Below are positions 22,939 to 43,393 of a DNA stretch of 64,000 nucleotides, in pieces. The stretch is from positions 21,954-85,953 of IMG/VR virus record IMGVR_UViG_3300013383_000026; one strand, 5' to 3'. The stretch is from a virus (taxonomy: Duplodnaviria > Caudoviricetes). The position numbers were made by a program, and so were the translations under genes. The notes under the pieces were generated by a model. That model saw only the letters and a program-made list of their open reading frames with translations, made no database searches and was not told where the DNA came from. Numbering within the stretch: position 1 is the first letter of the stretch; every line of letters starts with the position of its first letter.

Positions 22939-24210
22939 TTACGTTTTAATTTTATACCAAATATCACCACTATTCATATTAGTAGGTTGAGCTGAAACAA
23001 GTTTATTTTTATTGGCTTCCGGATAAGGCGGAGGATTGCTTGCTGAATATTGTCTTACATTATCAACATTACTTAATCCTATATCTGATTTACTAAGAGT
23101 AACAGCACCAGTTTTTGTATTGACCGAAACAACAGGTGCATTATTCATTACATAATCAACTATGCCACCAGCATCAGCAACCGCATTAGTAGCATCATAT
23201 GTAGCTCTCATCATATCGCCGCCACCAGCAGCAGTTATAGCATCAGAAACAGCTTTTTCACTAGGTACTTTAGTGGTACTAGAACCCAATGTTGTTGTTA
23301 CATCAGAAGTTGAAACAGCCCCAATATCACCAGCCACTAAACTGACTGCGCCAGTCTTGTTATTGATAGATTGAACAGGAGCTTGGGCTGATGTGATAAA
23401 ACCCGAATCATTAGTAATATCACTTGTTTTACTTGGAATGGACGGCTTATTAGTTAAATTGTCATAATTCCCATCGCCAGCCCCAATGTTAGTACGAGCC
23501 TGTGTTTTCTGTGCGTCAGTTAATGCTTGAGACACATACTTAACCATATTGCTAGTTACTGCACCGCTTTCACCATCAATAGTGGCAACATAAACCGTAT
23601 TATCCGACAATGCGCCAATATCGGCAGGAGTTAAAGTAATATTTTGATTAAGTTGTTTAGAATTAACCGTCCTCGTATCAGGAACAGCATTAATATCGCT
23701 CGCTTGTGTAGGAACAACTATATTTGCAGTTATATCATCAGCGTCATTCGCCGTAAATTCTGCCACTTTAGTGCCGTTCTTCTGTATAGTTAACTTAGCA
23801 TCATTAACTACTGGTATAATAGTAGTGCTGGGCATTGCGCCAACATCTGTTGCCGTCAATACAACTGCGCCTTTTTTATTGTTTACGCTAGTTACTGGAT
23901 ATGCAATTTCATCAATTTTATTATTAACAAAAGAATCTATGCCGCCAGCAAGCTTGACATCGCCATTGGCATCATAATCATCTTTTTTCATATCTCCTTG
24001 CCCAACATTTGTTATGGCATCGGAAACTGCCTTCTCGCTAGGTACTTTAGTTGTGCTAGAACCTAATGTTTGAGTAATATCAGTTACGGCAACAGCGCCT
24101 ATGTCTGCTGGGCTTTTAGGTATATCCAAACTAGAAATAGATTCTCTAGCTTGAGCATCTTTTATGTCATATTTTACATTATCAACAGTTATCGTTGAAA
24201 TATCTGCCAT
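22939..24210 (-). CDS. tail fibre protein with internal duplications
   Basis: TLGSSTTKVPSEKAVSDAIT...GDM present twice; PVTSVNNKKGAVVLTATDVGA repeats. Confidence 0.65.
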   Translation of the reverse strand: MADISTITVDNVKYDIKDAQARESISSLDIPKSPADIGAVAVTDITQTLGSSTTKVPSEKAVSDAITNVGQGDMKKDDYDANGDVKLAGGIDSFVNNKIDEIAYPVTSVNNKKGAVVLTATDVGAMPSTTIIPVVNDAKLTIQKNGTKVAEFTANDADDITANIVVPTQASDINAVPDTRTVNSKQLNQNITLTPADIGALSDNTVYVATIDGESGAVTSNMVKYVSQALTDAQKTQARTNIGAGDGNYDNLTNKPSIPSKTSDITNDSGFITSAQAPVQSINNKTGAVSLVAGDIGAVSTSDVTTTLGSSTTKVPSEKAVSDAITAAGGGDMMRATYDATNAVADAGGIVDYVMNNAPVVSVNTKTGAVTLSKSDIGLSNVDNVRQYSASNPPPYPEANKNKLVSAQPTNMNSGDIWYKIKT

Positions 24211-24237
24211 ATAGAATAACCACTTCCTTTAAGTAGT

Positions 24238-24600
24238 TTATTTTGTACTCAGTACACCATCAACAATCGTCAAACCATTGCCTATTTTAACACCACCTAA
24301 TTCAGTGGCAGAAGCAACAGGTAATACATATTCATCTGGGCTACTTGTAGAAATAACAAAAGCCTTACTCATACCAGCGGGAGGAACGAATACAGGATAT
24401 TTTTTATTTATCTTAGGAGCATAATCGCCATAATAAGATAAGTTATATCCAATAGTATTTATGTCTACTACGCAAGTATTATTACTTTTTACTTCTGTTA
24501 CTACACCAAATAATATGTTGGGTGTTGATTTTTTTATGGCGGCATCAACAATTATTTTTATCGCATCAAGTATTTCTTTTTGGACTTTTGTATCTGCCAT
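24238..24600 (-). CDS. baseplate-associated hypothetical protein
   Basis: ATG 24600 after AAAGGTG; LPVASATELGGVKIGNGL motif. Confidence 0.5.
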   Translation of the reverse strand: MADTKVQKEILDAIKIIVDAAIKKSTPNILFGVVTEVKSNNTCVVDINTIGYNLSYYGDYAPKINKKYPVFVPPAGMSKAFVISTSSPDEYVLPVASATELGGVKIGNGLTIVDGVLSTK

Positions 24601-24620
24601 TACTTCACCTTTATTATCCA

Positions 24621-24645
24621 AAGGGGCAAGATTAACTTACCCCTT
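24621..24645 (-). terminator. possible terminator hairpin after tape-measure gene
   Basis: AAGGGG-AAG / CTT-CCCCTT imperfect inverted repeat. Confidence 0.4.
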
Positions 24646-24654
24646 ATCAATTTT

Positions 24655-27600
24655 TCATGCTCTCGCATAGCTATATTGATATGCAAGATTCTTTAAGCCA
24701 TCTAAAAACTCACCAGCATTAGAAACGCCCGGCAATTCAAGCCGACCAATATCAAATGAATAATTAGTCACTACTGCTCGACCTATATTAGACAAAACAT
24801 CCTTAACATTGAGACTAGATAGCGCCATAAGATTCTTTGTTGCTTCAGCCGGAATTATACCATCACCATGCCCAATCACACGCATCTCAGGGCCATTTTC
24901 ACCAACTAAGGACAAGCCACCTCTGGCATTAGTTGTACCATGAGCATATTTGCCCGTTAACTGGTCAACTTCTCTTTGAGCCTTTGCTATGGCATCAAGA
25001 TTCTGAATATACTGGAAACGACCGCCAGTAAATGCCAATATCCTATTCTCTTTGGCTTTAGCTAAATCGCTTAATTTCTCTTCAAGTTGAATCTGCTCTT
25101 CGAGAGACTGATTTTGATACTTATATATCTCTTCTTCATGTTGCCAATAATCATCTTTAGCATCGGCAAGATTCTTTAAGTATCTTTCATTCATTATCTC
25201 TAAATCACGATAATATTGTGCTTCAGAGATAATATCCATATTCAGCCAGTGTTTCTTTTCTTTCAGCCATTCATCAAAATTCTTCTTTAAGTCCTCGCCA
25301 GAGCCGGGAAGCGCCGTAACACCAGAATAAGTCGGGTCATTTCGTCTATCAGGATATTTAGGATTATTCTTAGTACCATTAGCCATAGCCGGGATAGGAT
25401 TCTCAGCTACATCGTCAACTGTTAGCTTGCGATCTTTAAGAATATCTTGAGTTTGTCTCGCCGTATAAATCTTAGCACCTTTAGGTATTGGCTGAACGGT
25501 TTCTTTGCCGTCATTATAAATCTGCCCAACACCATTATGTACGACTAATTCGCCGGAGGAACCATTGACAGGCGCACCGTCATTTATTAATGCCAATCCA
25601 CCGGGAGCCGATTTGGCACCCTTGGCAAATTTATAAGCGCCCGTTTTTGTGTAGTTAACGGTAACATTTATTGTTTTATCGTGGAGCGAATTCAGTTCAT
25701 TCTTTACAAGATTAATAGCTTGTAAAGCATTAAAAGCATTACAAGAAACAGAAAATGATTTATCGCTAATATGATAGTTTTGTACTATCCTAAGAGACGT
25801 CATAGCTGAACTCGTATTGGCTCTAACATTGACAACAGGCTGGTAAGAAGTCAATGCTTGTGCTGTAGATTGAACAACTTGTAATTGTCCAGCAACCTCG
25901 ACAGCATTGGTTGTTATCTCAACATTAACACCAGCAATTATATTGTTGACTTCTTGAACAACCGAATTGATTTGGTCTTTAGCTGCGGATACATCAGCCT
26001 CAAGCGTTACTTTAACTGTTTTGCCGTTTACCTTATCTATCCAACTATCAATTTCTTGCAGAGCAGTAGCAAGTGCTTGACCCTCTTCTGCTGTAGTAAC
26101 AGTTATTTGCTTTTGTTCATCCTCAGTATCAAGAGAGTTTAATTTAGCATTAGCCTCATCCGCATTCGTCTCGACGTTAATGTTTTTATCGCTAAACTTG
26201 ATACCCTCGGCTTCTACCAATTTAGCTATAAAATCGTCTATATTACCGATTTTAGATAAATCAATAGCTCCGCTCTCTGCTAGACTCAGTAATGCCGTTT
26301 TTAGTCCCTCAACAGAAGTTATACCTAATTCAGAATTATTAACAAGTGCTTTAGCAACCTCTCCTATCGCACTTGAGCTATTCCTCATGTGGTCGGGGAA
26401 ATTAGCTAGAGCTTTGTCCACTGTTTCGACTGATTTATTGTATTCGTCTAATGCAGCTTGCCCATTTTTATAAGCTTCCAGAAGGCTATTGTAGCCTGAT
26501 AGCCAGCTCAACTCAGCATCGGACAATTTTTCACCAGTTTCTAACCTAGCTTCTAACCCATCGGCTATTGCCTTATTTGAATCTATATAGCTTTTTGCCA
26601 GATTTAGCTGTTCTTGTGTAGGCTTAACGCTTTTGCTTATGTTGTCAGCCAAATCTTGAAATGCCGACGAAGCATCCTCTAAACTGGTAGTGACATCTTC
26701 TATATGATAGCCATAATCATTTATCTCAGCTATCATTTCTTCGGTAGACTTAATAGTGCCATTCGCCTTAACCCACGAAAGTCCTAACGCATTAGCATAT
26801 TGCTCGGCAGCATCCGTCGCATCGTGAAATGTGCTAGGTAACTTTTCTAGGGCGGCTTGCTGGTCGGGAGGCAACTCCGCCCTTTTTATGCGGATTTTAT
26901 CTTCTGCAACGCCAAAAGACGTGGACGATGTATCTCTAGCCGTCACACCCATTTTAACGCCGTCTTTGGCAGCTTCTTGGTATGCTCCTATTGCCGCCTC
27001 AGTTTGCCTCTGTTTTTCGAGGTCTATAAGTTGCTCATAATATTCTATCTGGTCTTGAAGAACTTCTATTTCATGCTGTTGCTCACTTGTTCTATCGGCA
27101 TATGACGTATTATTCAATTCATCAAGCTTCTTCTTTGCATTATCTAAACTCTGCTGATATTCATCTGCCTTTTGTTTAGATTCGTCAAAGTCACCCATGA
27201 ATTTATCGAATTTGCCATCTGCATCTTTAATAGCCTTAACGATTAATATAATAGCCGCCGCGATCGCGCCAAGCCCTAGTGCAATTACTGTCCATTTAGC
27301 TCCGCCAGCTAATGCGGCAAACGCCTCGATGCCACTAGTAGCCGATTTAATAGTAGTAGCAATTTGTGCTATTTTGCTGATAAATTCACCAGCTATACCA
27401 GTAATGCCAGTAATCGCACCGCCAAATAATACCGCCTTGGCAACGGCTTGCCCCATATCGGTATTGGCAAATTCAAGTAATTTTGTGCCAGCGTCTAATA
27501 TCGACCCAATAAATTCTTTTGTAACAGTATTAGATGCAAAATTTTCATATGCGGCTTTAAGATTCTGTAATTTTGCCTCTATAGATTCCATATAAGAGGC

Positions 27601-30600
27601 GTTTTCATTCATTGCGGAATTTTGTGAATCATAGGCCGTATTAGTGGCATTTATAGCCGCTTGGAAGTTATTCATGACTGCGCCAAATACTTCAAACTGG
27701 TTCTTACCAGCATAAGCCAATGCTATAGACTGCTGTTCAGAACTTGACATATTATCCCAGTCGGATTTCAAATCCTTGAATATCTGGAATGTCGATTTCA
27801 TATCTCCCGTGGTTTCATCCATTAGAGATAAAGATTTTGTTACGCCGCCAACTTTATATTCAATTTCTCCTGCATCATTGGCGGCCGAAGCAAAGTTGTT
27901 ACCGATGGTTCTAAGCAATTAATTTCTCATATGTTTCCATATAAGTCAGACTATTTCTTCACCCTCAACATTACTTGTAGGGGCAACCCGTTTTGCTTTC
28001 GCTACTCTATAAAAGATAGTCGTTTGACACATCCCTATTCGGGACTTTGCGACCAAACACCCATTGCTACGATACTTAGGCTTTTGACCATATACCATCT
28101 CTATTGTTGTTTTACTTTCGTTACATTCATATTTGCATATTTCATCAAATATTGTAGTAATAGAGCTTTAGGGGTTACTGGTTTTAGGGTTGTGCTTAAA
28201 TGCACATTACTGTACATTGGGGGCTATAATTCCATCGTAATTATTGTTACCCTCGTGCAACTTTTGTGGCTTGTCCGGTCATAATTTCCGTGCCTGCCGT
28301 AACTACATTTGTTATTAATAGAAGGTCGTTAATCTTCTATGAATTGTATAATTTTTTCTTTATAAGTTTCGTCTTGTATATCTTTATAACTTATTCTTAA
28401 TAACGGGATATTCCATTGTTTGCAATACTCGTTTTTTATAATATCGTGCTTTTGTGTGGCTTCAAAAGTTTTTTGAGCAACTTCATTGCTAATTTGATTA
28501 AAATTACATGGCTTAAAATGTCCCTCTCCATCAACCTCTATTAGCCCCTGATTTTTCTCTATCCAGAAATCAAAAGGCAAAGGGATGACATCTTTACATG
28601 AATTTATTCTATATTGATAAATATATCTTATATTATTATCATCTAAGAATTGCTTAACAATTCTTTCGTATCTTGAGCTACTTTTTGCACATTTATCACA
28701 AGTTATTTTGCCCTGATAAAAAGAAGAAATTGATGTTGTAAATATATCGCCACATTGACATCGGCATTTTATACCTTGCCGCGTCCATTTTTTATCATCA
28801 CAAAAATCAATAACCTCGGATTTTATACCTCTGGTTCGGGCATAAAGATTAGCATTATAGATATAATTCTTTTTATTGGTTCTAACATCAAAAATAGCTA
28901 TTTGACGGCCTGATTTTAGTTTATTATAAGAAATAAAACCCTTATAACCATCCTTATCCTCGACCTCTAAATATTCATTTCTTAAAAAGAACTCTGGCTC
29001 ATTTAGAACTGTATATCCTTTAGCTCTAAAAAATTCCAATGTCTCCTGTTTGTCTTTACGATGTGATTTTCCGCGATTTTTTATAGCACATTTATTACAT
29101 TCAGAAACATATGTTAACGTTTGAAGATTATCCCACGTTTTATTAAACACATTTCCACATTTACATCGCATAGTTATTAGGACTCGTTTGTGCTTTGATT
29201 TGGTTATTATTTCTATGCTTAATATTTCAGCATTGGGGTCTTTCTTCTTTATAAATGTTTCTATATTTTCTTTCCAAAAAGGATTGGATAGAGAAAAGAA
29301 CCTTTTACTCGTAGACTTGCCTTGCTTATGCGTAATATCTACGACACTACACCAACTCTTCAACCCATCTTTTTCACAACAAATATTTTGCTGAGTATTT
29401 ATATATTCTTCTTCAGGTGTTAAAATATGATAGCCAAATTTATTCAATCTTTCCTTAATTTCTTCATAACTTAATTTATCCAATTATACAACTCCTCATA
29501 CCTTTCGTATAAGATTAGATTATATCTTACATTCTTTAATAGAATGTCAACCCATTTCCCCAAACTTTTGGGTATGCCACTAACGACAATGGACTTACTA
29601 ATCGTTGAACCTTCATCTAGTATCTATAGATGCTTGGCTGCTGATTGCCCAATCCTTATCTTTGTCACCATACCAAGTTCATTGCGCTTGCCGTTATAAT
29701 ATTTCTATTATAATTTGGTAGATAAGGCTCTAAGGGGTTCCCAGTCAATTAGGGTTGTTTTAATAGACCAAGTTTTAGCCTATGGTTTGTTCAAAATCAT
29801 TGCCCAAAACGCCCATTGCAGAGCTGGTTTTAGACAGAGCCGTAGCAACATCCGTAGACGAAACAGCAAAATTATTACTGACGGCATTGATACTATCTAT
29901 AATGTGAATCGCGTCCTCAGCAGGAATATTGAACGCCTTCATTTGAGATATTATAATCGCCGCACTATCACTTGCAGATATTGCATCATCAGCAACGTTC
30001 TGGTATAATGTTGCTACTTGTGCCAGAGTCGCGGAATCTTCATCATTGAATGAGTTTTTGCGAAATTCCAATAAATGTTCAGTAAGTTCGTTAAGCTTAC
30101 CAGCAGCACTACCCGCATCTTATAGTTTCCTACAAGTTCAGACTATATCTTTATCTATTAACAAATAGATATGGGGCGCTTCGATTTCACTTGAAACCTA
30201 CAGATATTATTTCAATCTTAGTCGTTGAACCTTCCAATAACTCAATATTGGCTTGGCTGCTGATTACCCAATTCTTACAATTATCACGCTTTGGTATGTA
30301 AGACTCTAAGGGTTTCCCAGCAATTCACCCCATTCATTATATATGTTGCCATATACTCAACCAAATTATTTAGTTGCTGCCTCAATCATTTCTGACTGAT
30401 TAATTAAGGCCAAAAATAATGTTCATCAAAAAATTCACCATACTGCTCAAGCCCCTCTTCCTCATCAGTTTTTATTTGAGTCCCAGAAGAAGTATGCTTA
30501 TTACTGTCATTTGTTTTGGGCTTTGTAACTAATGAATGTATAATACTTGCAAAAAATGTAATATACACAACCGGCACAATAATCACTACAACAATAATCA

Positions 30601-31837
30601 CCATAAACATATAATCAACCTCCTTTGGTTGATTCGACTATAACACATAATGAATCTTTTGTCAAGTAGTTTTCAATTACTTATCGACTATTTCTTCATC
30701 CCATAAATTGGTGGACTGCTCTGTATAGTCTGTTGACACATCCCTCATCAGGACTTCGCGCCCAATCTGCCCTTTTGTCCCGTTTATTATATAATATTCG
30801 TGACATAATACTTAGGTCTTTCGACCATATATCATCCTTGCCGTTTTATTGATTTCTCACCATGTAATTGCATGATTTTATATTATATGGAGAAAATCTA
30901 CGCATTTTTTACAGCGAGGTTATGTGTACTTCAACACATTTCTCCAACGACTTTTATACAAATTTACATATTTTCACACTTAGGCTTATCTCATCCTTAT
31001 GTTGTAGTGACAAGGCTCTTGAGGCTTTCAAGGGTTTAGGAGCTATTCTTCGTGCTGGTTTACCATCCCATCACGGCGGCTCAGAAAAGTTAACCGCTAC
31101 GTCCAACTTGCTTACCCATATCGGCAAGCTTTTTCGTATAATTATCTAACGACTTACCAGACAAGTCAGAGACTTTCTTAACGTTATATTCAGCACAGTT
31201 CGCTACACCATGCCCGTCTTATTGACCGCTTTATATCTCTATAAAGACTAGACTATATCTTCATCTTATTAAAGATGTCTGCCGCTGTCTTGCGCTTGCA
31301 AGCACTTAGTCGTTGAGCCTTCTTCATAATTATATCACATCGCCACATATAAATCAATATAATTTTAGAAGCTTGGTTGCTGATTGCCCATTATTATAAC
31401 ACTTAGGATTTAACCATATGTCATGCTCATACTTTTTTCTGCTTTCGCCACTATCACATCCATCATTTCTAATCATGCTGTAGTGTATAAGCCTTTAGGG
31501 GTTTCCAGCAATTCGACAGATATTTGTTCTATTATTTCACAATAATAGTGAGCTATTTTGTTAACTCTGTTTGTGCAGAATCTAACTTCTTTGTCTGTTC
31601 GGCCATACTAGTTATTGCTTTGGCACAGTTATCTAATATGAGTCTGTACTGTTGATAAGTTAAACCAGCGGCCTTGGCGCTTTCACTGGCCTTTTCTGTC
31701 GCTTCGCCCAGTTTCCCAACTTCTTCAGTACCACTCGCCTTAACCGTTAACTTGCTTTGCTTTTCTTGTAGTTTAGCATCAATCTCGCTAGTATCAAGGT
31801 CAACGCCAACTTTAATTTTCCATGCACTATTCGCCAA
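24655..31837 (-). CDS. tape-measure protein (TP901-type core), six exons, ~1331 aa when spliced
   Basis: Exons 31837-31564, 31181-31093, 30395-30372, 30068-29777, 28305-28250 and 27915-24655 sum to 3996 nt in one frame. Junction peptides TEFKKVSDL, GRSGSEMIEAATEFRKNSF, QTIGLVTAGTE, KVARGLRTIG. Confidence 0.85.
27916..28249 (-). mobile_element. group I intron 5 of tape-measure gene (ORF-less, atypical 5' junction)
   Basis: R TCAAACGACTAT and S AAGAAATAGTCTG (P7 GACUA/UAGUC). In-frame join is CGAGGG|TAAC...AATTG|CTTAGA. Confidence 0.8.
28306..29776 (-). mobile_element. group I intron 4 of tape-measure gene with homing endonuclease
   Basis: Canonical GGCT|AAAAC...AAATG|TAGTT; P1 AUAGGCU/GGUCUAU; R GTTCAACGATTAG, S AAGATATAATCT; ORF lies 3' of P7. 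Confidence 0.85.
28329..29483 (-). CDS. intron-encoded Vsr/PD-(D/E)xK-like (EDxHD-type) homing endonuclease
   Basis: Repeated CxC/CxxC modules plus C-terminal LPFDF...LIEVDGEGH...KHD...LLRI. Confidence 0.75.
   Translation of the reverse strand: MDKLSYEEIKERLNKFGYHILTPEEEYINTQQNICCEKDGLKSWCSVVDITHKQGKSTSKRFFSLSNPFWKENIETFIKKKDPNAEILSIEIITKSKHKRVLITMRCKCGNVFNKTWDNLQTLTYVSECNKCAIKNRGKSHRKDKQETLEFFRAKGYTVLNEPEFFLRNEYLEVEDKDGYKGFISYNKLKSGRQIAIFDVRTNKKNYIYNANLYARTRGIKSEVIDFCDDKKWTRQGIKCRCQCGDIFTTSISSFYQGKITCDKCAKSSSRYERIVKQFLDDNNIRYIYQYRINSCKDVIPLPFDFWIEKNQGLIEVDGEGHFKPCNFNQISNEVAQKTFEATQKHDIIKNEYCKQWNIPLLRISYKDIQDETYKEKIIQFIED
30069..30371 (-). mobile_element. group I intron 3 of tape-measure gene (ORF-less)
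   Basis: Canonical GCAACT|AAAT...TATTG|GAATTT; P1 CAACU/GGUUG; R GTTCAACGACTAA, S AAGATATAGTCTG. Confidence 0.85.
30404..30610 (-). CDS. intron-borne single-pass membrane protein (68 aa)
   Basis: Hydrophobic N-terminus MFMVIIVVVIIVPVVYITFFASIIHSLV, acidic tail; RBS AAAGGAGG; own promoter. Confidence 0.7.
   Translation of the reverse strand: MFMVIIVVVIIVPVVYITFFASIIHSLVTKPKTNDSNKHTSSGTQIKTDEEEGLEQYGEFFDEHYFWP
30637..30665 (-). promoter_or_regulatory. sigma-A-type promoter inside intron
   Basis: TTGACA-17 nt-TATAGT with extended TG. Confidence 0.7.
31182..31563 (-). mobile_element. group I intron 1 of tape-measure gene (ORF-less)
   Basis: Canonical GAGT|TAAC...TAACG|TTAAG; P1 GAGU/GCUC; R CTCAACGACTAA, S GAAGATATAGTCT. 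Confidence 0.85.
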
Positions 31838-31852
31838 TATCCATCACACTCC

Positions 31853-32386
31853 TTATTGTGATTTATTCTCTTGGCTACGTCTATATTTTACAATTTGACT
31901 ATAAGCTATAAGTATGCCCTCGGCAATATCATCATCATTTAATTTGCTTTTAGGCGAAACCCAATTAAGCTTAATGCCAAACTCATCATTCACCGTCTGT
32001 ACGGCTTTCTGTTTAAGTATATCTCTTTGTAATCCTTGTCGAGTACCATCATATAAGTCAAGCTCTTTTCGCCAATGAACGGGTAAAAGAAATATTGGTT
32101 TACAATTATATTGACTACATAAAGCCAATATCATACCTTGCATAGCGCCTAATTTTACCAATGTTGACGAGCCGGGCTTTAATGGCACATCTTCTACATA
32201 CGCCTTTATTGGGTGGTATTTGCGTATTATATCACCCAATGATGTTGCTTGTTCTTCTATACGTTCTCGCCAATCTTTATTCTTTGGCTTAATTTTGCCG
32301 TATGCTATAAGACCAGATTTATCAAATATACTATATCCAGTACAAGATGTAGATAAATCTAAGCCCATAATACAATTACTTCTCAT
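31853..32386 (-). CDS. RuvC-like Holliday junction resolvase
   Basis: MGLDLSTSCTGYSI, YVED, LGAMQG, DDIAEGI acidic catalytic motifs. Confidence 0.75.
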   Translation of the reverse strand: MRSNCIMGLDLSTSCTGYSIFDKSGLIAYGKIKPKNKDWRERIEEQATSLGDIIRKYHPIKAYVEDVPLKPGSSTLVKLGAMQGMILALCSQYNCKPIFLLPVHWRKELDLYDGTRQGLQRDILKQKAVQTVNDEFGIKLNWVSPKSKLNDDDIAEGILIAYSQIVKYRRSQENKSQ

Positions 32387-32884
32387 TTAATCCTCATGCG
32401 ATGTTTTAACCGGGTCGCCACTCGCTTTCTTTATAGGTAGTCCAGCCCGTTTCATACCACGCTGATATAATTCAACTATTTTATTTTTACTGAACCATTT
32501 ATCTGTTTTCCTCCATGCGTTACGCTTAGTTGGCCTATGAAACAAACCCGGCCCACTTTGATATATTAAATCTGCCATTTCATCAGCCATTGATTCTCCA
32601 TATATATCAGTGTGTTGCAAATCATCGGCATTAACAGATAAATTGCTTGGCTCAAAATAAAATTCGCCTTCAACTGATTTGCCAGATTTTGAGTGGTCTA
32701 TATCCCAAGCCAACTTAAAATCATCTGTGCGCTTATAAACATCGGGTGAATAAGCATCATAAACTGTTTTTTGCACTCGCTTTTCGTTCTCTATGAGCAA
32801 TTCGCCCATCATATAATTCATAGCTTGGTCAAGTCTATCAGTTGCGGCTTCGGATAATTCTTCATCGTTTTCAAACGTTGGCAT
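32387..32884 (-). CDS. hypothetical tail-region protein
   Basis: Context; VYDAYSPDVYKRT motif seen in HK97 gp10-like neck proteins (weak). Confidence 0.45.
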   Translation of the reverse strand: MPTFENDEELSEAATDRLDQAMNYMMGELLIENEKRVQKTVYDAYSPDVYKRTDDFKLAWDIDHSKSGKSVEGEFYFEPSNLSVNADDLQHTDIYGESMADEMADLIYQSGPGLFHRPTKRNAWRKTDKWFSKNKIVELYQRGMKRAGLPIKKASGDPVKTSHED

Positions 32885-33308
32885 TTCCGATAACGTCCTT
32901 AATGCCTATACCTTTAAGCTGTTCAAGTAATTCAGGTATATTTTGAGCTATATCAGCTATCATCCTAACAGGCGATTCATAATGCTTAATCGCGTCGTAA
33001 ATATCAGAGAAGTTAATTATATGCAACATAACTTCGCTATAAAGCCCACTACTTGCAACCATATCGGGGTCGAGTTCTTCAATCTTACTCTCGCCAATAT
33101 CAGTCGCATAGCACAGCACTTTATAGCAAATCATCTGCTCGCGCTCAAGCCAAGTGCCAAGATTAATCACGGTCTTAGCAATATCTTCAACTTGCGTCGG
33201 TGTTAAATAAGGATTAACTTTAACATCGTATTCTTCGAGATATACTTTCTTTGCTTTTAATTCCTTCATTTCCTTTTGTCTCCTTTTATTTCTCAAACTT
33301 GTAGCCAT
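32871..33308 (-). CDS. hypothetical protein, possible tail assembly chaperone
   Basis: Position between major tail and tape-measure genes. Confidence 0.45.
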   Translation of the reverse strand: MATSLRNKRRQKEMKELKAKKVYLEEYDVKVNPYLTPTQVEDIAKTVINLGTWLEREQMICYKVLCYATDIGESKIEELDPDMVASSGLYSEVMLHIINFSDIYDAIKHYESPVRMIADIAQNIPELLEQLKGIGIKDVIGNANV

Positions 33309-33591
33309 TCTTTATTTTCTTTACTTTTACATATTGAGGAATATCATCAAAGGGATTGTCATAAGGTCTAACAACTCCATCCATATTAATATATAGTTTT
33401 CCATGCCGAACAAATTCTACTTTAGTATAACCCTTCGGCACATCAATCATTTCATCGCTCATATACTTACATACCTCTTTGGCTCGGCTTATTTCTTTCC
33501 AACCCATTATCTTATCACACCAATACATAGCAATACATACATCATTTAATTTCTTGCATTTATTGCCATCATATCTATATTGACAACTCAT
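33286..33591 (-). CDS. Cys-containing hypothetical protein
   Basis: RBS and operon context. Confidence 0.5.
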   Translation of the reverse strand: MSCQYRYDGNKCKKLNDVCIAMYWCDKIMGWKEISRAKEVCKYMSDEMIDVPKGYTKVEFVRHGKLYINMDGVVRPYDNPFDDIPQYVKVKKIKNGYKFEK

Positions 33592-33608
33592 TATTATCTC
33601 CTTAAAAA

Positions 33609-33640
33609 ATAAGGAGGCTAGAATCGACTAACCTCCTTAT
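33609..33640 (-). terminator. intrinsic terminator after major tail gene
   Basis: ATAAGGAGG / CCTCCTTAT inverted repeat followed by a T tract on the minus strand. Confidence 0.65.
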
Positions 33641-33654
33641 AAATTAATTCTTAT

Positions 33655-36389
33655 TTAACCGACAGTAACAGTCGCATATGCAACTATATCGGCATAGCCG
33701 GTAAGCGTTGCAGAAATAACAGTATCTCCATCAGTAGCGCTCGCCGTAATCTCACCAGTACTAGCATCAACAGTCGCGGACGAACCAGACTGCACTGCAA
33801 AAGTAAGGTTGCTGTTGTCAATACGCGCAGAAGCGACAGAGCCGCCATAAACCGCACGAACAATCAGAGTCTCCTTAGCGCCCTGAGCAAGCTCAATGTC
33901 TGCATTCTCAATGGCAAGAGCAACAACATCATCTTTCCAGTTCGCGCCAAAAATTTCCTCAGTTATAGTGCCGTAGTACGGGTCCTCCTCGCAACTATCG
34001 CCAGCTTCAACACCAAGGGCATTGCCAGTCAGAGAAACAGTGGCAGCAGAAGTTGCAGTTAAATTAAGGTCTTGATTCTAATATGTTCACATAAGTTCGC
34101 TACGCTTATGCAGTTCTCTTATGAACTTCTTATGCTTTCACATAAGTACAGACTATATCTTCATCTTGTTTATTCATATCTATATACACAATGCTGTGAT
34201 TATGAACCAAATAATCAACAGCTCTTTTTATAGTATCTTCATCGGGCAATTCATCATATTTATTGCCCTTAATTCTTAGTATCTTATATCCTTGTTTTAA
34301 TACACACCCATTGCGCCGATTATCATATAACTCTCTCTTATTATGGTAATATGCACCGTCATATTCAACATCTATTAAAATATTATCCGCTTTTAACAAG
34401 CAGTCAAAATTAACTCTATCTAATGGATATGCAGGAATACAATTATCTTCGCCATATAATCTTGCCAATATGTCACATAACTTTCGTTCGGGCTTAGAAG
34501 TTGGAGCTGTGCCGTGCTCGTAAAAAGATTGCGTCACTTTTCGCATTATCTCATCAGACTGCAATGCATGTTTAACGCCATATTTCTCAAGCATTGTTTG
34601 TTTGCCACGTTCCCTAACTTCTTTAGCTTGTAAAGTATATTCTACGCCGTACTTATCTAAACTTTTTTGCCTCTTTTTATCCTTAACAGCTTCTATTTGA
34701 GACATATTGTCCACGCCATAACGTTCCTGCATGGTAGATTTATGTTTATGCCATTGGCATGAATCACAGGCCAGTAAACCAGTTTTTATGCTATGTAAAT
34801 ATAACTTATACATTAACTTATATGGCCCACCACAATAATCACAAATACAATTCACCATTACATGACTTCCACTGGTTAAATCTTTAGCTTTAGCTTCAAA
34901 CTCATCGCCCATTTTAGTAAAACGATAGCCTCTTTTGACATAATGAGATTTTATCTTAGAATTCCATTTAACTAAAACAAGCTGATTTTCATCAAACATT
35001 TATTCACTTCTTCTTGGTTCAAATTTATAAAATAAACAAGAGCAGTATTTTTCGACTACGCTAGTAGCCTACTCTCCCCTAAGGAGATAGTCGTTGGGGG
35101 TTCTCCATGTATATTATATTATATAGCTTAATATAAGTCAATAATATATTTAGGAGCTTCCTTGCTAAACACCCATTGTAAATAACACTTAGGACGTATA
35201 TTATTATAAATATACGCTTTTATTTCACCATATGTCATCCCACGATTTTTTCTGCTTTCGCACCATTCAGCATATTGTTTCCAATTACTGTTTAGGTTGT
35301 GGGCTTTAGGGATTAAAAGCATTTAACACTGAATCTGCACCAATCACTTGATACAGAGGGCAAATCACCCGTCCAGCTGGAAAGAGGGAATATCAGTAAT
35401 CAGACGTCCATACTTACTTGCATTCGCAACATCCTTAGTATCACCAGAAAACAGGTCATTAAGAATAACAACATGAAGCGTCTTAGGCACATACTGAGTA
35501 TTGATAGTAATGTGACGCGCATTCAGATTCTGATAGAAATACTTAATGCAATAGCTGTCACCGGCCTGATAGTTAGGAATAGTAATCTTATTGCCAACAA
35601 TATTTGCAATGGTCCAATAGTTATCAGAGGGTTTCTTATACCAACCAATAATGGAGCCATTAAATGCAACAGCAGTATTAGTAAGCGTAATTACGCCACC
35701 AGTGCCAATCGTCTCGCCCTGAGCCGGGGACTCATAGACAGAAAGTCCACCCTGTTCAATATCAACACCAAGATTCGCTGCGACATATTCAAGCTTGAAC
35801 ATTGCGTCCGTGAGCGTAATTGCGAGATTGCTATCATGGAAATGCTTGCCAAACAGCGCATTACCGCTACCGCCACGAATCTCTTCATTGGCTATACTAA
35901 AATTAAAGGTGCTCTCAGTTAAGGTCTTTGCATAATTTTCACATAAGTTCGTTAGGCTTATGCCGTTTATTCGAGCAAAATAAACTGCTCATGCCTTCAC
36001 ATGAGATAAGACTATATGTTCTTCTTATTTGTTCATATAAGAAGTGGATTTTTCAGGGCACTTGCCCCTACTCCCTCGCAAAGGGATAGTCGTTGAGCGT
36101 TTCCCTTATCTTTATAGACTTAGGGATTTCGTTGCTGAAGACCCATTGTATAGATACTTAGGATTTAACCATATATCCATCTTACAACTTTTTTCTACTT
36201 TCGTAACCATTCAGCTTGTCATTTCTAACTACTGTTTAGGTATGTAAGCTTTAGGGATTGCCAGCATTTAACCCAAAGTACACACTTTTCACAAAATGTG
36301 CATGGCCATTATTTTACCACACCTATAAGATTATTAGAATCGAAGAGGAGTGCGCGACCGACACCCGCCAGAAAATGATTCTGAGCCAT
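33655..36389 (-). CDS. major tail protein with C-terminal Ig-like domain, three exons, ~352 aa spliced
   Basis: Exons 36389-36317 (MAQNHFLAGVGRALLFDSNNLIGV), 35930-35368 and 34077-33655 (NQDLNLTATSAATVSLTGNAL...VTVG*) total 1059 nt. Exons 1 and 3 are absent from the ORF track. Confidence 0.8.
34130..34999 (-). CDS. intron-encoded Vsr/EDxHD-like homing endonuclease
   Basis: CDYCG and CDSC zinc motifs, EKYGV repeats, DVEYDGAYYH...DNRR...GYKILRI. Confidence 0.75.
   Translation of the reverse strand: MFDENQLVLVKWNSKIKSHYVKRGYRFTKMGDEFEAKAKDLTSGSHVMVNCICDYCGGPYKLMYKLYLHSIKTGLLACDSCQWHKHKSTMQERYGVDNMSQIEAVKDKKRQKSLDKYGVEYTLQAKEVRERGKQTMLEKYGVKHALQSDEIMRKVTQSFYEHGTAPTSKPERKLCDILARLYGEDNCIPAYPLDRVNFDCLLKADNILIDVEYDGAYYHNKRELYDNRRNGCVLKQGYKILRIKGNKYDELPDEDTIKRAVDYLVHNHSIVYIDMNKQDEDIVCTYVKA
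35113..35141 (-). promoter_or_regulatory. sigma-A-type promoter inside intron upstream of the endonuclease
   Basis: TTGACT-17 nt-TATAAT. Confidence 0.55.
35931..36316 (-). mobile_element. group I intron 1 of major tail gene (ORF-less, atypical 5' junction)
   Basis: R CTCAACGACTATC, S ACATATAGTCTT; in-frame join GGTGTGG|TAAAA...TTATG|CAAAG. Confidence 0.8.
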
Positions 36390-36391
36390 TT

Positions 36392-37252
36392 TTATCCTCC
36401 TATAAATTTATCGAATTGTGAGGTTAATTCCCCACTATTATTTGTTTTGGACATAGTATGTATCATACCATCCCCACCCATAGATTTATTATAACTTTCA
36501 ACAGATGTAATATAATCGTCATACTTGCCTTTAGATTTCTTAAATATCCACTGAACATTATCAGCTTTGCCAGCATACATAGCTAACGGTTTAGTAACCA
36601 TATATTCAACTTCGCCAGACGCCTCAGAGAATAATAAGCTATGATAACGTAACGTCATAGCTAATTGTTCTGTTTTAGTTAATCCAGTATGGGCTGAAAT
36701 AATAGCCATGCGCCGTTCAAGATTAGGTGGATTAATGCCCTTAGCTTTTAATTCATCATATTCAGCCATATTCGCCTTTAATTCAGGATTGACATATTCA
36801 TCATCAAAATTAGGCAAATTCTGATAAAGAACTATTCGCTTTATATCATCAAATTCTTTAGCCGTTATAATCAGGTCTAATTTATATTCATTAGTATCTG
36901 TATCACGAACCGCATTAACTAATAAAGCGCGTCCTTTATCATCATAATCTAAATATGGCAGTTCAAAGCCAAGACATAATAGACATATATTTACTAATTG
37001 CTGCTTAGTGGCATTGTCTATTAATATCTTTTCTTTAAGAAATTTAAGATATGACATTTGGATTATTTCTACATCTGTACTAAGATTTTTATCTATATCT
37101 AAAATTCCATAACTTGTCATAAAAATCATGGAATCTTCAAGTTTAACAGGATTTATGTATAATGTTTTGCCGCATTTGAGCGGATAAGGAACTGGTTTAT
37201 CGAATGTAAAATAGGCTTCATTAAGAAAACCAATATCAACCGCCACATCCAA
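36392..37252 (-). CDS. hypothetical neck/tail-region protein
   Basis: Operon context only. Confidence 0.5.
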   Translation of the reverse strand: MDVAVDIGFLNEAYFTFDKPVPYPLKCGKTLYINPVKLEDSMIFMTSYGILDIDKNLSTDVEIIQMSYLKFLKEKILIDNATKQQLVNICLLCLGFELPYLDYDDKGRALLVNAVRDTDTNEYKLDLIITAKEFDDIKRIVLYQNLPNFDDEYVNPELKANMAEYDELKAKGINPPNLERRMAIISAHTGLTKTEQLAMTLRYHSLLFSEASGEVEYMVTKPLAMYAGKADNVQWIFKKSKGKYDDYITSVESYNKSMGGDGMIHTMSKTNNSGELTSQFDKFIGG

Positions 37253-37805
37253 CCTCCGTGCCAGAATCGCCCATTTGCGTACTTAACCACATTTGTACTC
37301 CTGTGAATGTTTTACTATTACCAATAACACTATGAGCCGCATCATATCTTGCTTGGTCATCATTAAATATTAATTTGCCTACGCCGCCGATATAAACACC
37401 ATTAAGAGTATTTAATATCTCATGGATAAACAGCGTCCCACGATTAGTAGGAATACCATTATAATCAATCAGCGCCATAGTACCGCCATATAAGAAATCA
37501 AATTCATATACAGCCGTAGATAGATATTCACTCGGACTTGCATAAACATGATAATTATATAGCTTAAATATACACTTGCTTTCACATATAGCATCCTCGA
37601 CTAAATTAGTTAAAAACACGCCATACTTTTCTTGAGTACCAGTTTTCCATAAGAAATCTAACTTTTCACCTATGGTTAAATTCGGCTTGCTCAATGCATC
37701 GTAGCCATTATATTTAAGCATCTTCCATATATTCTCATTATTAACCACAAGATATTCAAGTATCTTATATAAGCTAGTGGGTAAAGCAGATAAGCTATTA
37801 TACAT
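37236..37805 (-). CDS. putative tail terminator/completion protein
   Basis: Position upstream of the major tail gene. Confidence 0.4.
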   Translation of the reverse strand: MYNSLSALPTSLYKILEYLVVNNENIWKMLKYNGYDALSKPNLTIGEKLDFLWKTGTQEKYGVFLTNLVEDAICESKCIFKLYNYHVYASPSEYLSTAVYEFDFLYGGTMALIDYNGIPTNRGTLFIHEILNTLNGVYIGGVGKLIFNDDQARYDAAHSVIGNSKTFTGVQMWLSTQMGDSGTEVGCGG

Positions 37806-37808
37806 ACA

Positions 37809-39083
37809 TTAACCTCCTAACATACTTGTAACAGTTATAGATTTAGTTTCAGTGTATACTATATCGCCGTTATCATCTTTGACTTCAATACTATATTCAA
37901 CCGGCATAGAGCTAATCTTAACACCAGTAAATTTATATGTATTTATACCAATAGATATAATAGATATATTATCACTATTGACATTTATTCCGACTGTTAT
38001 GTTATCTTGTTTGACATTATTTCTATAGAGAGCATATGTTACATCAATAGACTCATATTGTTTAATAATAGATATTTCAGGTTCAGCATTTATACTCCAT
38101 GCATCAGCCGAAGTCTCTACAACTTCAACAGTGCATTGAGCATTAACATCGGGATTGCCTTTAAGATATGCTGTAATAGTGGCTTTATCCCCCACATCGC
38201 CAATAATAATATAAGAACCATCATCAGTAATATTTATTACAGTGTTATCATAATCCCATACTATATCTCGGCTCACTTCATTGCCGTTCAACAAAACAGT
38301 AGTATTAATTTGACCAGTCGCGCCTTTAATCGCTTGAATATCATCACCTATGGCAATCGAATATTCATACGTACCGTTATCAGCCACACCAGTTACAATA
38401 TCATCACCATCATGTAATTCATCGAGATATAATTCTAAATATAATAATGTATCGTGTTGTAATGTTAAATCATGTTCAACGGCGTTTTGATAACCCAACA
38501 GCTTAAACGGTCTCCCAGATAGCATATATCTAGTATTCGTCTTAAATAATCTTAATGTATCTTCATTGCCCTGAACCATTACTGTTGCATGATTGCTCGG
38601 TGTATTGATATATCTTGACACTTTAAGACTGCTTGCCGCCATATCATAATTAACTACACATGGTATGCTAAATATAGCCCCATTATCGGGGTCAATTATT
38701 TTTAACCGATTATTACATCTTCTTATACCACATGATTGAACAACTCCATCCCACGGCGTATAGCTATGTACTATCCAATAATTATTCTCAAATTTGTACA
38801 TTAATCCCCACATAGTAGTGTGATTAATATCTCTGAAAACAATCTTATTGAAGTCATAAGGCTGCTTGAGTCCAGTCGTGGTATCAGCAATAGTAGAATC
38901 GATCCATACCTCAAGGCACTTATATTCATTACTGCCAAGCCCTTGCTGTTCTTGTACAGTAACTAAAACCGAAGTATTGTCCCATTGTTCTAATACATAT
39001 TGTTGCTGTTGTTCACGATACATTTCATCGGGCATAGGCTGTGCTTCATTGATTATAGCATTATCAAAAAACTTAAATGCCAT
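37809..39083 (-). CDS. putative head-completion protein with Ig-like C-terminus
   Basis: GIRRCNNRLK motif and beta-rich C-terminal half; neck context. Confidence 0.45.
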   Translation of the reverse strand: MAFKFFDNAIINEAQPMPDEMYREQQQQYVLEQWDNTSVLVTVQEQQGLGSNEYKCLEVWIDSTIADTTTGLKQPYDFNKIVFRDINHTTMWGLMYKFENNYWIVHSYTPWDGVVQSCGIRRCNNRLKIIDPDNGAIFSIPCVVNYDMAASSLKVSRYINTPSNHATVMVQGNEDTLRLFKTNTRYMLSGRPFKLLGYQNAVEHDLTLQHDTLLYLELYLDELHDGDDIVTGVADNGTYEYSIAIGDDIQAIKGATGQINTTVLLNGNEVSRDIVWDYDNTVINITDDGSYIIIGDVGDKATITAYLKGNPDVNAQCTVEVVETSADAWSINAEPEISIIKQYESIDVTYALYRNNVKQDNITVGINVNSDNISIISIGINTYKFTGVKISSMPVEYSIEVKDDNGDIVYTETKSITVTSMLGG

Positions 39084-39367
39084 TAATCACCAGTCCCTTC
39101 CAGCCTATTAATGCTATCAATAAGCCCGAATACGACCGATTTAACCTGTTGATGTGTAGCCTCTCGACCTAATATATATAGACCCTTAATAGAATTATAT
39201 ATCTCATATTGCCCTGAACCTAGCCAATGAATATACATTCTATCTAAGTAGCCTAAATAACTATCAAGATTAACAGGTGAATCAGCCTTATCTATATCCT
39301 CATAAAGCCCTAAAATTTTATAAATTGCATTAATGTCTTGAATTTTACCCATCTTACTACCTCTCAA
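39083..39367 (-). CDS. hypothetical protein
   Basis: Coupled stops and starts with both neighbours. Confidence 0.5.
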   Translation of the reverse strand: MRGSKMGKIQDINAIYKILGLYEDIDKADSPVNLDSYLGYLDRMYIHWLGSGQYEIYNSIKGLYILGREATHQQVKSVVFGLIDSINRLEGTGD

Positions 39368-39792
39368 TAATAAGATGATATATCTTCAAGCTGATATGCT
39401 CTTATTTGTCTATCAACTTCTTCTCGCATTTTATCGGCATATACCGAATTTTCTTTCAAATTCTGAGCCTCGCTATGATTCTTGAATGAGCCGCTATTCT
39501 GTAGATGTATTCTATATAGAGCGTATGTCTGATTATCTTTTAGATACCAATGGACAGCCCATAAGTAAGCTAATATCTTTTGCTCTGTTTGCGTTAAATC
39601 TGATTCAAATGTACGCGTCTCAGTATCATAAGCAAGGTCTTGCCGACAATCCTTAAAATCTTGAACAGCTCTTATTAAAAAGCCATCACAATATCGCTTG
39701 AAGCCGTCAATATCTTTATCATATAATTTCCGTAAACGATAATCGTTTACGTCTATTAGGGCTAAATCTATCACCGAATCAAACTCGGTCAT
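39364..39792 (-). CDS. putative head-tail adaptor
   Basis: FESDLTQTEQKILAYL...FKNHSEAQNL; position after the capsid gene. Confidence 0.45.
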   Translation of the reverse strand: MTEFDSVIDLALIDVNDYRLRKLYDKDIDGFKRYCDGFLIRAVQDFKDCRQDLAYDTETRTFESDLTQTEQKILAYLWAVHWYLKDNQTYALYRIHLQNSGSFKNHSEAQNLKENSVYADKMREEVDRQIRAYQLEDISSYY

Positions 39793-39805
39793 GGTTTATC
39801 ACCCC

Positions 39806-40465
39806 TTAATTTTCCATTTGTTCTATGTTAATTAAATCCTTGCCGCAAAGCTTGCCAAGTTGCATAAGTATATTTGCATCAACAAGTTGACCATTAATAA
39901 GCCGCCCAGAAATCATATTAATAATAATATCCTTCTGTTCATCATTTGCATTACGATATATCTCACATACATCAGTCGCATTCCGACTAAGTAACTTCTC
40001 AAGGTCAGTATTGCTCAGTAAATCAGCATAAACATCATCAAGCTCACATTCCTCAACAAAGTCGTGGTCAGCTATATAAAGTAAGCCACTAGAAACCGAC
40101 TTAGGCATGTTATTAACAACAATCTTAGCCTCAGTCTCAGAAAGCAACTTATAATCAAATTGCTTATCGAGATGATACATTCGAGTACCGCGAATAGTAA
40201 AGCCACCAGCCGTCATATTAATAAACTTAATATTGCGCTTAGTCGGCTTAGTCCCGGACAGTTCACGTGCAGGTATATTAGCCTGAGCTTGCATCATAAG
40301 CTTCATTTGAGCCATAAGCTCATCCATCTTCTGTTGCTGTTCAGCTAATTGTGCCTTCAACTGTTCTTTTTCTGCGTCAACCGCGATTACATTAATATTC
40401 TTATCAACCTCATCAATAACTTGTGATGTTACCTTTGCGCCAGAATTTTTCGGGGGTCTACCCAT
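39806..40465 (-). CDS. hypothetical protein with coiled coil
   Basis: RBS AAGGAG; context after the capsid terminator. Confidence 0.55.
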   Translation of the reverse strand: MGRPPKNSGAKVTSQVIDEVDKNINVIAVDAEKEQLKAQLAEQQQKMDELMAQMKLMMQAQANIPARELSGTKPTKRNIKFINMTAGGFTIRGTRMYHLDKQFDYKLLSETEAKIVVNNMPKSVSSGLLYIADHDFVEECELDDVYADLLSNTDLEKLLSRNATDVCEIYRNANDEQKDIIINMISGRLINGQLVDANILMQLGKLCGKDLINIEQMEN

Positions 40466-40506
40466 ATCTATATTATCTCCTTTTTAATTCCTTTAATTCA
40501 AAAATA

Positions 40507-40533
40507 AGCAGAGAGCCTATATTGACTCTCTGC
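40507..40533 (-). terminator. intrinsic terminator after major capsid gene
   Basis: GCAGAGAG / CTCTCTGC inverted repeat followed by a T tract on the minus strand. Confidence 0.6.
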
Positions 40534-40554
40534 TATATGTGTGTTGTTATTTAA

Positions 40555-42853: not shown

Positions 42854-42907
42854 ATTTATATTATCTCCTTTTAATATGTATAATTAAATCAAACAATAAT
42901 TTATAAA

Positions 42908-43393
42908 TTACTGCTTCATCAGAATCCAAGTCTTAACAATCTCACCACCGCAATCAATAGTGTGAGTACCAAGAATCTTGAACGGGTCAGAGTTAGTAGC
43001 AGAGCCAGTCAGCTTACCAGAAGCTGCAACCTTGGCATAACCATTAGCAGCGGGGTCGGCAGTAAACGCGGCAAGGTCAACCTCAATGCAGTCACCAGCA
43101 ACAAGGCGCTTCACAGAGATAGGCTTGCCAGCCTCATTAGTGAAGTAACGAGGGTCATCAAACAGACCAGCCTCAATGCCGTAACCCTGTGCCGGAGTAC
43201 CAGCAATATAAGTGCCGTCACCGCCAGCGGTAACAGTGAACTCATAGCCACCATCATCAGCAAGACCGATTGCACCCAGAGTCAGAAAAGTAGCGTTATC
43301 AATATCGGTAGCAGCGATACCGCAAATATTAAAGGCGTCAATATCCCAGAACGCGCAGCTCGTGCCGTTAAATATAGCATGATTCTTTGCCAT
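42908..43393 (-). CDS. putative capsid decoration/stabilising protein
   Basis: Gly/Ala-rich, capsid-like codon bias, lies between protease and capsid genes. Confidence 0.55.
   Translation of the reverse strand: MAKNHAIFNGTSCAFWDIDAFNICGIAATDIDNATFLTLGAIGLADDGGYEFTVTAGGDGTYIAGTPAQGYGIEAGLFDDPRYFTNEAGKPISVKRLVAGDCIEVDLAAFTADPAANGYAKVAASGKLTGSATNSDPFKILGTHTIDCGGEIVKTWILMKQ

Follow-up and report, generated by a model that had tools for sequence, protein, structure and literature searches.

How can a gene that is broken five times within its conserved N-terminal core still specify one continuous tail tape-measure protein? The question is raised by a locus on the minus strand, from 31837 to 24655, of a 64,000-nucleotide stretch of viral DNA, referred to below as the window, which comprises bases 21954-85953 of the 85,953-bp IMG/VR record IMGVR_UViG_3300013383_000026 (CheckV completeness 97%). 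Its sequence marks the locus as the tail tape-measure gene belonging to an uncultured ~86-kb gut siphovirus related to Enterocloster phage PMBT24. We consider it very probable that five group I introns split the gene into six exons, and that these introns settled independently in the TP901-type core. We set out below how the exons map, how the RNAs fold and what relatives add in support; the splicing itself is predicted from these.

Exon map and spliced protein

All of the exons and introns described here lie on the minus strand, positions are those of the window, and related loci are cited by L numbers. Exon 1 (31564..31837, 274 nt) begins with a TTG start codon 11 nt past an AAGGAG motif and ends in codon phase 1. 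It is followed by exon 2 (31093..31181, 89 nt), by exon 3 (30372..30395), a 24-nt micro-exon whose eight codons spell SEMIEAAT and whose two borders are both in phase 0, by exon 4 (29777..30068, 292 nt), which carries the TP901-type tape-measure core, by exon 5 (28250..28305, 56 nt), whose last base is G, and by exon 6 (24655..27915, 3261 nt), which holds the remainder of the protein. When the rebuilt exons are joined by script (274+89+24+292+56+3261), they form a 3996-nt frame with a single, terminal stop codon, encoding a spliced protein of 1331 residues. These are the six lengths and the frame proposed in a first-pass annotation of the window, and the micro-exon reported there, with its eight residues and its phases, is likewise recovered in the joined sequence.

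The exon junctions fall at codons 91.3, 121, 129, 226.3 and 245, placing every intron within the first 245 codons, the TP901-type core to which they had originally been assigned. Exon 4 alone exceeds the cut-offs of TIGR01760 (37.8 bits; cut-off 28.8) and PF10145 (44.3 bits; cut-off 33.2), and exon 6 matches phrog_4211 'tail length tape measure protein' with an E-value of 7.4e-32.

Comparison with an intron-less homologue had been put forward as a check on the joined peptide, and in a local alignment with the uninterrupted PMBT24 tape-measure protein (L002:4069-8595) the spliced protein runs without a gap over approximately residues 19-271, all five junctions lying within this gapless, 40-55% identical stretch. 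Exon 2 matches PMBT24 residue for residue, exon 5 does so with both PMBT24 and L043, and the exon 3 peptide SEMIEAAT corresponds to DEMVEAAT in PMBT24; three intron-less relatives (L018, L024 and L032) have exactly eight codons at the position of the micro-exon. At its start exon 3 contributes 6 nt to P10 of intron 2, and at its end 5 nt to P1 of intron 3; on these predicted pairings the exon is just long enough to hold both elements.

The PMBT24 gene is 4527 nt long and uninterrupted, and it follows a RuvC endonuclease gene. A RuvC-like gene (31853-32386; PF02075) is the immediate upstream neighbor here, and the order RuvC to tape-measure is common to both phages. The closest cultured relatives found by tblastn are ~100-kb Enterocloster phages with 52-54% identity in the core, and no near-identical phage records were found. 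Given the relationship to PMBT24, the host is probably Enterocloster or a different member of the Lachnospiraceae. Gene finders fragment this essential gene and miss the 24-nt and 56-nt exons, and as a consequence the tape-measure length, and hence the tail length, would be misread for this group of phages.

Five candidate group I introns

Each of the five inserts was compared with the Rfam covariance model RF00028 (gathering score 50 bits), using lax filters for the weaker introns. Introns 1 and 3 pass the cut-off, and introns 4 (42.9 bits), 5 (36.2 bits) and 2 (10.8 bits) fall below it; covariance models, which the first-pass annotation had named as a check, thus recognize two of its five group I introns and leave three under the threshold. 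Its assignment of all five inserts to group I nonetheless finds support from three directions: RF00028 itself for introns 1 and 3, helix covariation for introns 2 and 5, and Rfam-passing homologues for intron 4. All five introns end in G (at 31182, 30396, 30069, 28306 and 27916) and have an in-frame stop 0-3 codons past their start, and in introns 1-4 the preceding exon ends in a U that is paired with a G of the guide. Introns 1, 3 and 5 contain no endonuclease-like open reading frame (ORF) and are bare ribozymes, in line with the original count of three ORF-less introns.

Intron 1 (31182..31563) is 382 nt long, has no endonuclease ORF, and scores 101.4 bits over 31229-31573. The U at the end of exon 1 pairs with the guide G (GAGU/GCUC), and the in-frame stop lies three codons in; past P9 there are two more hairpins and then an unpaired tail that extends to the G at 31182. 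At the same site, codon 91.3, canonical U/G junctions are present in L034-L041, L044 and L045. Intron 3 (30069..30371; 303 nt, no ORF) scores 96.6 bits over 30119-30381 and has its 3' end at the G at 30069, with a 5-bp P10 in register (GAAUU/AAUUU); its terminal hairpin, with a UAACGA-type loop, and the tail behind it are conserved in the introns that L027 and L037 carry at this position. The 3' ends of the Rfam matches (31229 for intron 1 and 30119 for intron 3) were considered as splice sites and rejected, as splicing there puts stops in the required frame. Because of P10, the conserved terminal hairpins and the relatives, the true 3' ends of introns 1 and 3 are placed 47-50 nt beyond those of Rfam, which is where the first-pass annotation had put them, and in both introns the added stretch folds as two hairpins with an unpaired tail behind.

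A coding role for the 17 in-frame open codons between 30119 and 30069, ahead of exon 4, was also rejected, since it would add residues that are absent in all relatives; a faint tblastn likeness of these codons to the exon 2/3 peptide was judged to be due to chance. The peripheral terminal hairpin is itself a recurring element, present in many introns, in which a loop of UAACGA or UAGCGA is followed by ~10-20 unpaired bases and then G. It was found at 31182-31228, 30069-30118, 35931-35975 and 34071-34115, and in L027 and L037 just before 6001, and it is outside the coverage of the Rfam model.

Introns 2 and 5 resemble one another and the codon-121 introns of related genes, and together with eight relatives they make up a set of ten sequences that was aligned with MAFFT. 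Duplexes sought in each sequence separately reveal that P2, P3, P4, P5, P6, P7, P8 and P9 can all be formed at aligned places in ten of ten. On the fixed MAFFT alignment 70.8% of the cells are paired, compared with 59.9 +/- 1.4% after shuffling (a level reached or exceeded by none of 500 shuffles) and 37-47% with slid partners; the column-wise pair counts are too low for P2, P3 and P8 as a result of MAFFT misalignment. Pairing is 100% in P6 and 95% in P7, with compensatory changes in both helices, and 26 pairs are altered on both sides. The sequence of P3 is different in nearly all members, and P7 changes from GACUAU/AUAGUC to GAACAU/AUGUUC and GAGUAU/GUACUC. Because the helices co-vary, we regard introns 2 and 5 as true group I ribozymes of a class that is poorly reached by Rfam.

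Intron 4 (28306..29776; 1471 nt) consists of a core (29776-29496), an ORF and a 23-nt tail. Its P1 has 7 bp, including the U-G pair, its P10 has 4 bp (AGUU/AACU) in register, and its last base is the G at 28306; the homologous introns that occupy this site in L016 and L020 reach 53 bits, above the Rfam threshold. The ORF (28329..29483) encodes a homing-endonuclease-like protein of 384 aa, with matches to phrog_559 'HNH endonuclease' (E 1.5e-43), phrog_9084 'homing endonuclease' (E 2.6e-26) and phrog_7140 'intron encoded nuclease' (E 2.3e-12), and no Pfam domain above the cut-off was found in it. Intron 4, which still has its homing-endonuclease-like gene, is probably mobile. The ORF of intron 4 is placed after the complete catalytic core, which puts the 3' splice site over 1 kb away from the core, an arrangement like that of the phage T4 sunY (nrdD) intron; the host gene and the endonuclease family differ.

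Intron 2 (30396..31092; 697 nt) has, behind its core, a small ORF that is preceded by a promoter and a Shine-Dalgarno site. It opens with an in-frame TAA and its last base is the G at 30396; P1 (GCGGU/GCCGC) contains the U-G pair, and P10 has 6 bp (UCAGAA/UUCUGA) in register. The ORF (30404..30610; 68 aa) has a hydrophobic N-terminus and an acidic tail, and a promoter-like site at 30637..30665 (TTGACA, 17 nt, TG-TATAGT) has 11 of 12 matches and is the top site in a 4.2-kb scan. We describe this as a predicted small membrane-protein gene with its own promoter; its product has no matches in Pfam, PHROG or NCBIfam.

A cargo of this type is present in codon-121 introns of six diverged phages (window 30396-31092; L004:5393-5976; L016:5381-5976; L017:5363-5973; L021:5230-5976; L033:5345-5976), where a small ORF, hydrophobic with a charged tail, is preceded in each case by a sigma-70 promoter close to the consensus and by a strong Shine-Dalgarno site. 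The whole begins after P9 and stops a few bases short of the 3' splice site, and the encoded proteins have no obvious sequence similarity to one another. The cargo may be an intron-borne accessory gene, for example one for a superinfection-exclusion protein.

Intron sites in related phages and known systems

A scan of IMG/VR with exon 4 as the query yielded 44 loci, in which breaks were mapped by tblastn with the spliced N-terminus. The gene is uninterrupted in six of these (L012-L015, L024 and L026), and the others have breaks at codons 91.3, 121, 129, 149, 188.7, 192, 226.3, 228.3, 231 and ~235, and further along at 245, 315, 321 and 356.7, amounting to at least 14 sites; all five sites of the gene described here are also used in other phages, whose introns at these sites nearly all have a U in front and a terminal G. 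Of all the junctions located by script, about four-fifths are bounded by U ahead of the intron and G as its last base, a proportion that validates the approach. Flags of non-canonical junctions raised by the script for L016, L022, L037 and L042 were set aside, the junctions being canonical by eye with a one-residue indel.

Seven of the loci (L034-L036, L038, L039, L041 and L043) have four introns each, L044 has five breaks with five Rfam-passing introns, and altogether 17 Rfam-passing introns are distributed over 12 related loci. The 24-nt micro-exon is flanked by two introns in L008 and L037 also, and its eight residues are retained in every relative. One site can hold different introns in different loci, and one intron type sits at different sites. 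With at least 14 sites in ~360 codons, the 44 loci constitute a natural experiment that could be used for studying how guides adapt to new targets.

Multiple introns are known from several other phage genes. Three are present in Twort orf142 (Landthaler and Shub 1999, as cited in PMC11878797), genes of the Bastillevirinae have two or three with a small internal exon and dominant exon skipping (PMC11878797), the ICP1 tape-measure gene has three that are experimentally confirmed (Barth et al. 2023, PMC10448857), and the tape-measure genes of Bacillus cereus-group prophages have three intron sites (Tourasse and Kolsto 2008, PMC2504315). Five introns exceed these published cases, which have at most three, and are common among the uncultured relatives; the first-pass annotation's description of five as extreme holds against these published genes but not within the clade, with its many sites and with the five of L044.

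The B. cereus introns TMP-IVS1, IVS2 and IVS3a/b are the most similar in setting, being IA-type introns in the same host gene family, some without an endonuclease gene, and including related introns fitted to different sites via P1 and P10; they occupy three sites overall with one or two per gene, whereas here there are five in one gene and at least 14 sites in the clade. The ICP1 tape-measure gene is likewise divided into several exons, one of its introns harboring an endonuclease gene, but its exons number four and its introns three, splicing having been established by RNA-seq and RT-PCR, and the six exons described here are predicted from DNA. Twort orf142 and the polymerase, terminase and reductase genes of the Bastillevirinae share with this gene the presence of several group I introns in a late or essential gene and small internal exons; they differ in having at most three introns, and in that exon skipping is on record only there.

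The intron 5 cut and competing explanations

Intron 5 (27916..28249; 334 nt) has no endonuclease ORF, its only reading frame being one of 50 aa on conserved RNA core sequence, and it ends with the G at 27916. It departs from the other four at its 5' splice site, where it follows a G (G28250) that is paired with C, and where the U-G pair uses U28249, the first base of the intron; the first-pass annotation makes no mention of this G. P1 consists of GGGU/GCCC, an internal loop and a 6-bp extension. The cut is placed after G28250 because the reading frame and the terminal G require it. The codon after the intron specifies Leu (CUU) in PMBT24 and all intron-less relatives, and also in L043, whose intron at this codon is canonical.

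Homologues of intron 5 are present at the same site in L009, L017, L021 and L031, and in all four a G precedes the intron, U is absent from the vicinity, and the last base is G. The intron's first base and the first base of the exon downstream are A in each of these, opposite one and the same guide U; the corresponding bases of intron 5 are U and C, both facing a guide G. In L017, pairing between the guide and the joined exons runs unbroken over 10 bases, and L048, a member of the family in the tape-measure gene of another phage, has a C-G pair at the cut.

A U before the 5' splice site is a near-universal rule, but splicing after G has been demonstrated by RT-PCR for BcISt1 of Bacillus cereus (Tourasse, Stabell and Kolsto 2014, PMC4227781), and in group B IStrons generally the last exon base is G, the U belongs to the element, and the U-G pair, displaced by one base, leads at once into an internal loop (PMC4227781). 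Intron 5 shares the G at the exon end, the U of the U-G pair as its first base, and the internal loop that follows, and it lacks the IS200/IS605 or IS607 transposase module and the long AU-rich inverted repeat. On this analysis, intron 5 is an example, in an ORF-less phage intron, of a rare quirk already demonstrated elsewhere; with its four homologues it would extend cutting after G from IStrons to plain phage introns.

A similar junction was noted in the major tail protein gene (33655-36389, minus strand), which has two group I introns. The first (36316-35931) is cut after G and has U as its first base, as in intron 5, and at its junction the relatives have Ala, Cys, Gly or Ser, never the Val expected from a shifted junction; the second (35366-34071) is canonical and contains a 289-aa homing-endonuclease-like ORF (34130-34999; phrog_12131). 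Two ways of restoring a conventional junction in intron 5 were tried and discarded. Shifting its 3' junction, with cuts past U28249 and C27915, gives Phe where all relatives have Leu and forfeits the terminal G, and an extra G introduced by assembly error leaves unexplained both the offset in the major tail gene and the four homologues lacking U.

In the account that we favor, five mobile group I introns would have settled one by one in the conserved TP901-type N-terminal core, and the late transcript would be spliced five times by the ribozymes to give the mRNA for the 1331-residue protein. Splice sites would be chosen by pairing of the guide with the last bases of the upstream exon (P1) and the first bases of the downstream exon (P10), together with the terminal G, and the early in-frame stops would keep ribosomes away from the folding ribozyme. 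Several observations weigh against it. Three introns (2, 4 and 5) are under the Rfam gathering score, P1 of intron 1 has just 4 bp on the exon side, P10 is weak in introns 1 and 5 with just 2-3 bp, a cut of intron 5 at its U-G pair would add one base and bring a stop two codons on, and no exon-exon joints were seen when two RNA runs and one other run were compared with 24000-43000. The contigs of the RNA runs represent relatives at 90-95% identity and conserved intron cores, and the joints that they contain link similar cores of different introns, which makes them uninformative about splicing.

Were intron 5 in fact cut after U28249, the mRNA would hold an extra base, and either ribosomal recoding would be needed for the full-length protein or only a minority of transcripts would be productive. 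The sole U-G pair in its P1 does involve U28249 (GGGU/GCCC), in keeping with the near-universal U ahead of the splice site (PMC4227781), but the product would read GGG UCU UAG and then end, the same one-base offset recurs in the essential major tail gene, whose relatives never have Val, the four homologous introns have no U near the site, and BcISt1 provides a precedent for splicing after G (PMC4227781); we consider this cut unlikely. It is highly unlikely, in our estimation, that one or more of the inserts is splice-dead, leaving a gene in pieces, or a pseudogene, in a genome that is defective or wrongly assembled. The sequence does come from a metagenome assembly, and three of the five introns are below the Rfam cut-off, yet all exon frames are intact, including those of the 24-nt and 56-nt exons that have no start signals of their own, every intron has kept its core helices and terminal G, CheckV rates the genome as 97% complete, and a contig from the other run, which may be the source sample, is identical over 31078-31456, covering exon 2 and both of its borders.

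Whether the layout is regulatory is a related question. With phase 0 at both of its ends, exon 3 could be skipped in frame, as the first-pass annotation had pointed out; exon skipping by group I introns has been recorded in Twort, and for the SIOphi terminase the skipped form predominates (PMC11878797). Slow or ordered splicing might then gate the supply of tape-measure protein, with skipping of exon 3 giving a functional shorter isoform. Skipping would, however, remove an eight-residue motif that is conserved in all relatives, P10 of intron 2 pairs with exon 3 and is not in register with exon 4, skipping of exon 2 or exon 5 breaks the frame, and relatives with zero to five introns in the core make the same protein; a regulatory layout of this kind is accordingly rated as quite improbable. 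There is also only a slim chance that five serial ribozymes, one with an unusual cut site, set the rate or timing of tape-measure production and that occasional skipping of exon 3 gives a second form of the protein that is used. No particular layout is needed, because the core introns number anywhere from none to five among close relatives whose protein is the same, and the pile-up is best interpreted as a build-up of selfish elements at conserved targets, not as a regulatory device.

On a more modest view than that of rate-setting ribozymes, the core of this gene may be a standing sink for mobile introns across a clade of gut phages, and the sink may include a lineage of otherwise ordinary introns in which a Watson-Crick pair replaces the U-G pair at the cut. 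Replacements of the U-G pair were also noted among codon-121 introns: a C-A wobble with both bases changed in L004-L007 (at 5393), a C-G pair in L021 (5230), and a G-C pair with no nearby U in L017 (5363). L048 (MT835469.1 130535-135754) derives from a 176-kb human-gut phage contig and has its intron 5 homologue at a different site, with a 379-aa endonuclease-like ORF and a 6-bp P10.

Short ORFs of 32-64 aa sit on conserved P5-P4 RNA in intron 5 (27946-28098), in intron 1 (31354-31476) and in the two major tail gene introns (36112-36210 and 35128-35322). Three of the four share a peptide motif; these ORFs are a by-product of RNA conservation and are not genes. Weaker RF00028 matches are present at 41302-41366, 55435-55652 and 56394-56703, and counting the seven introns examined here, the phage probably has ten or more group I introns in total.

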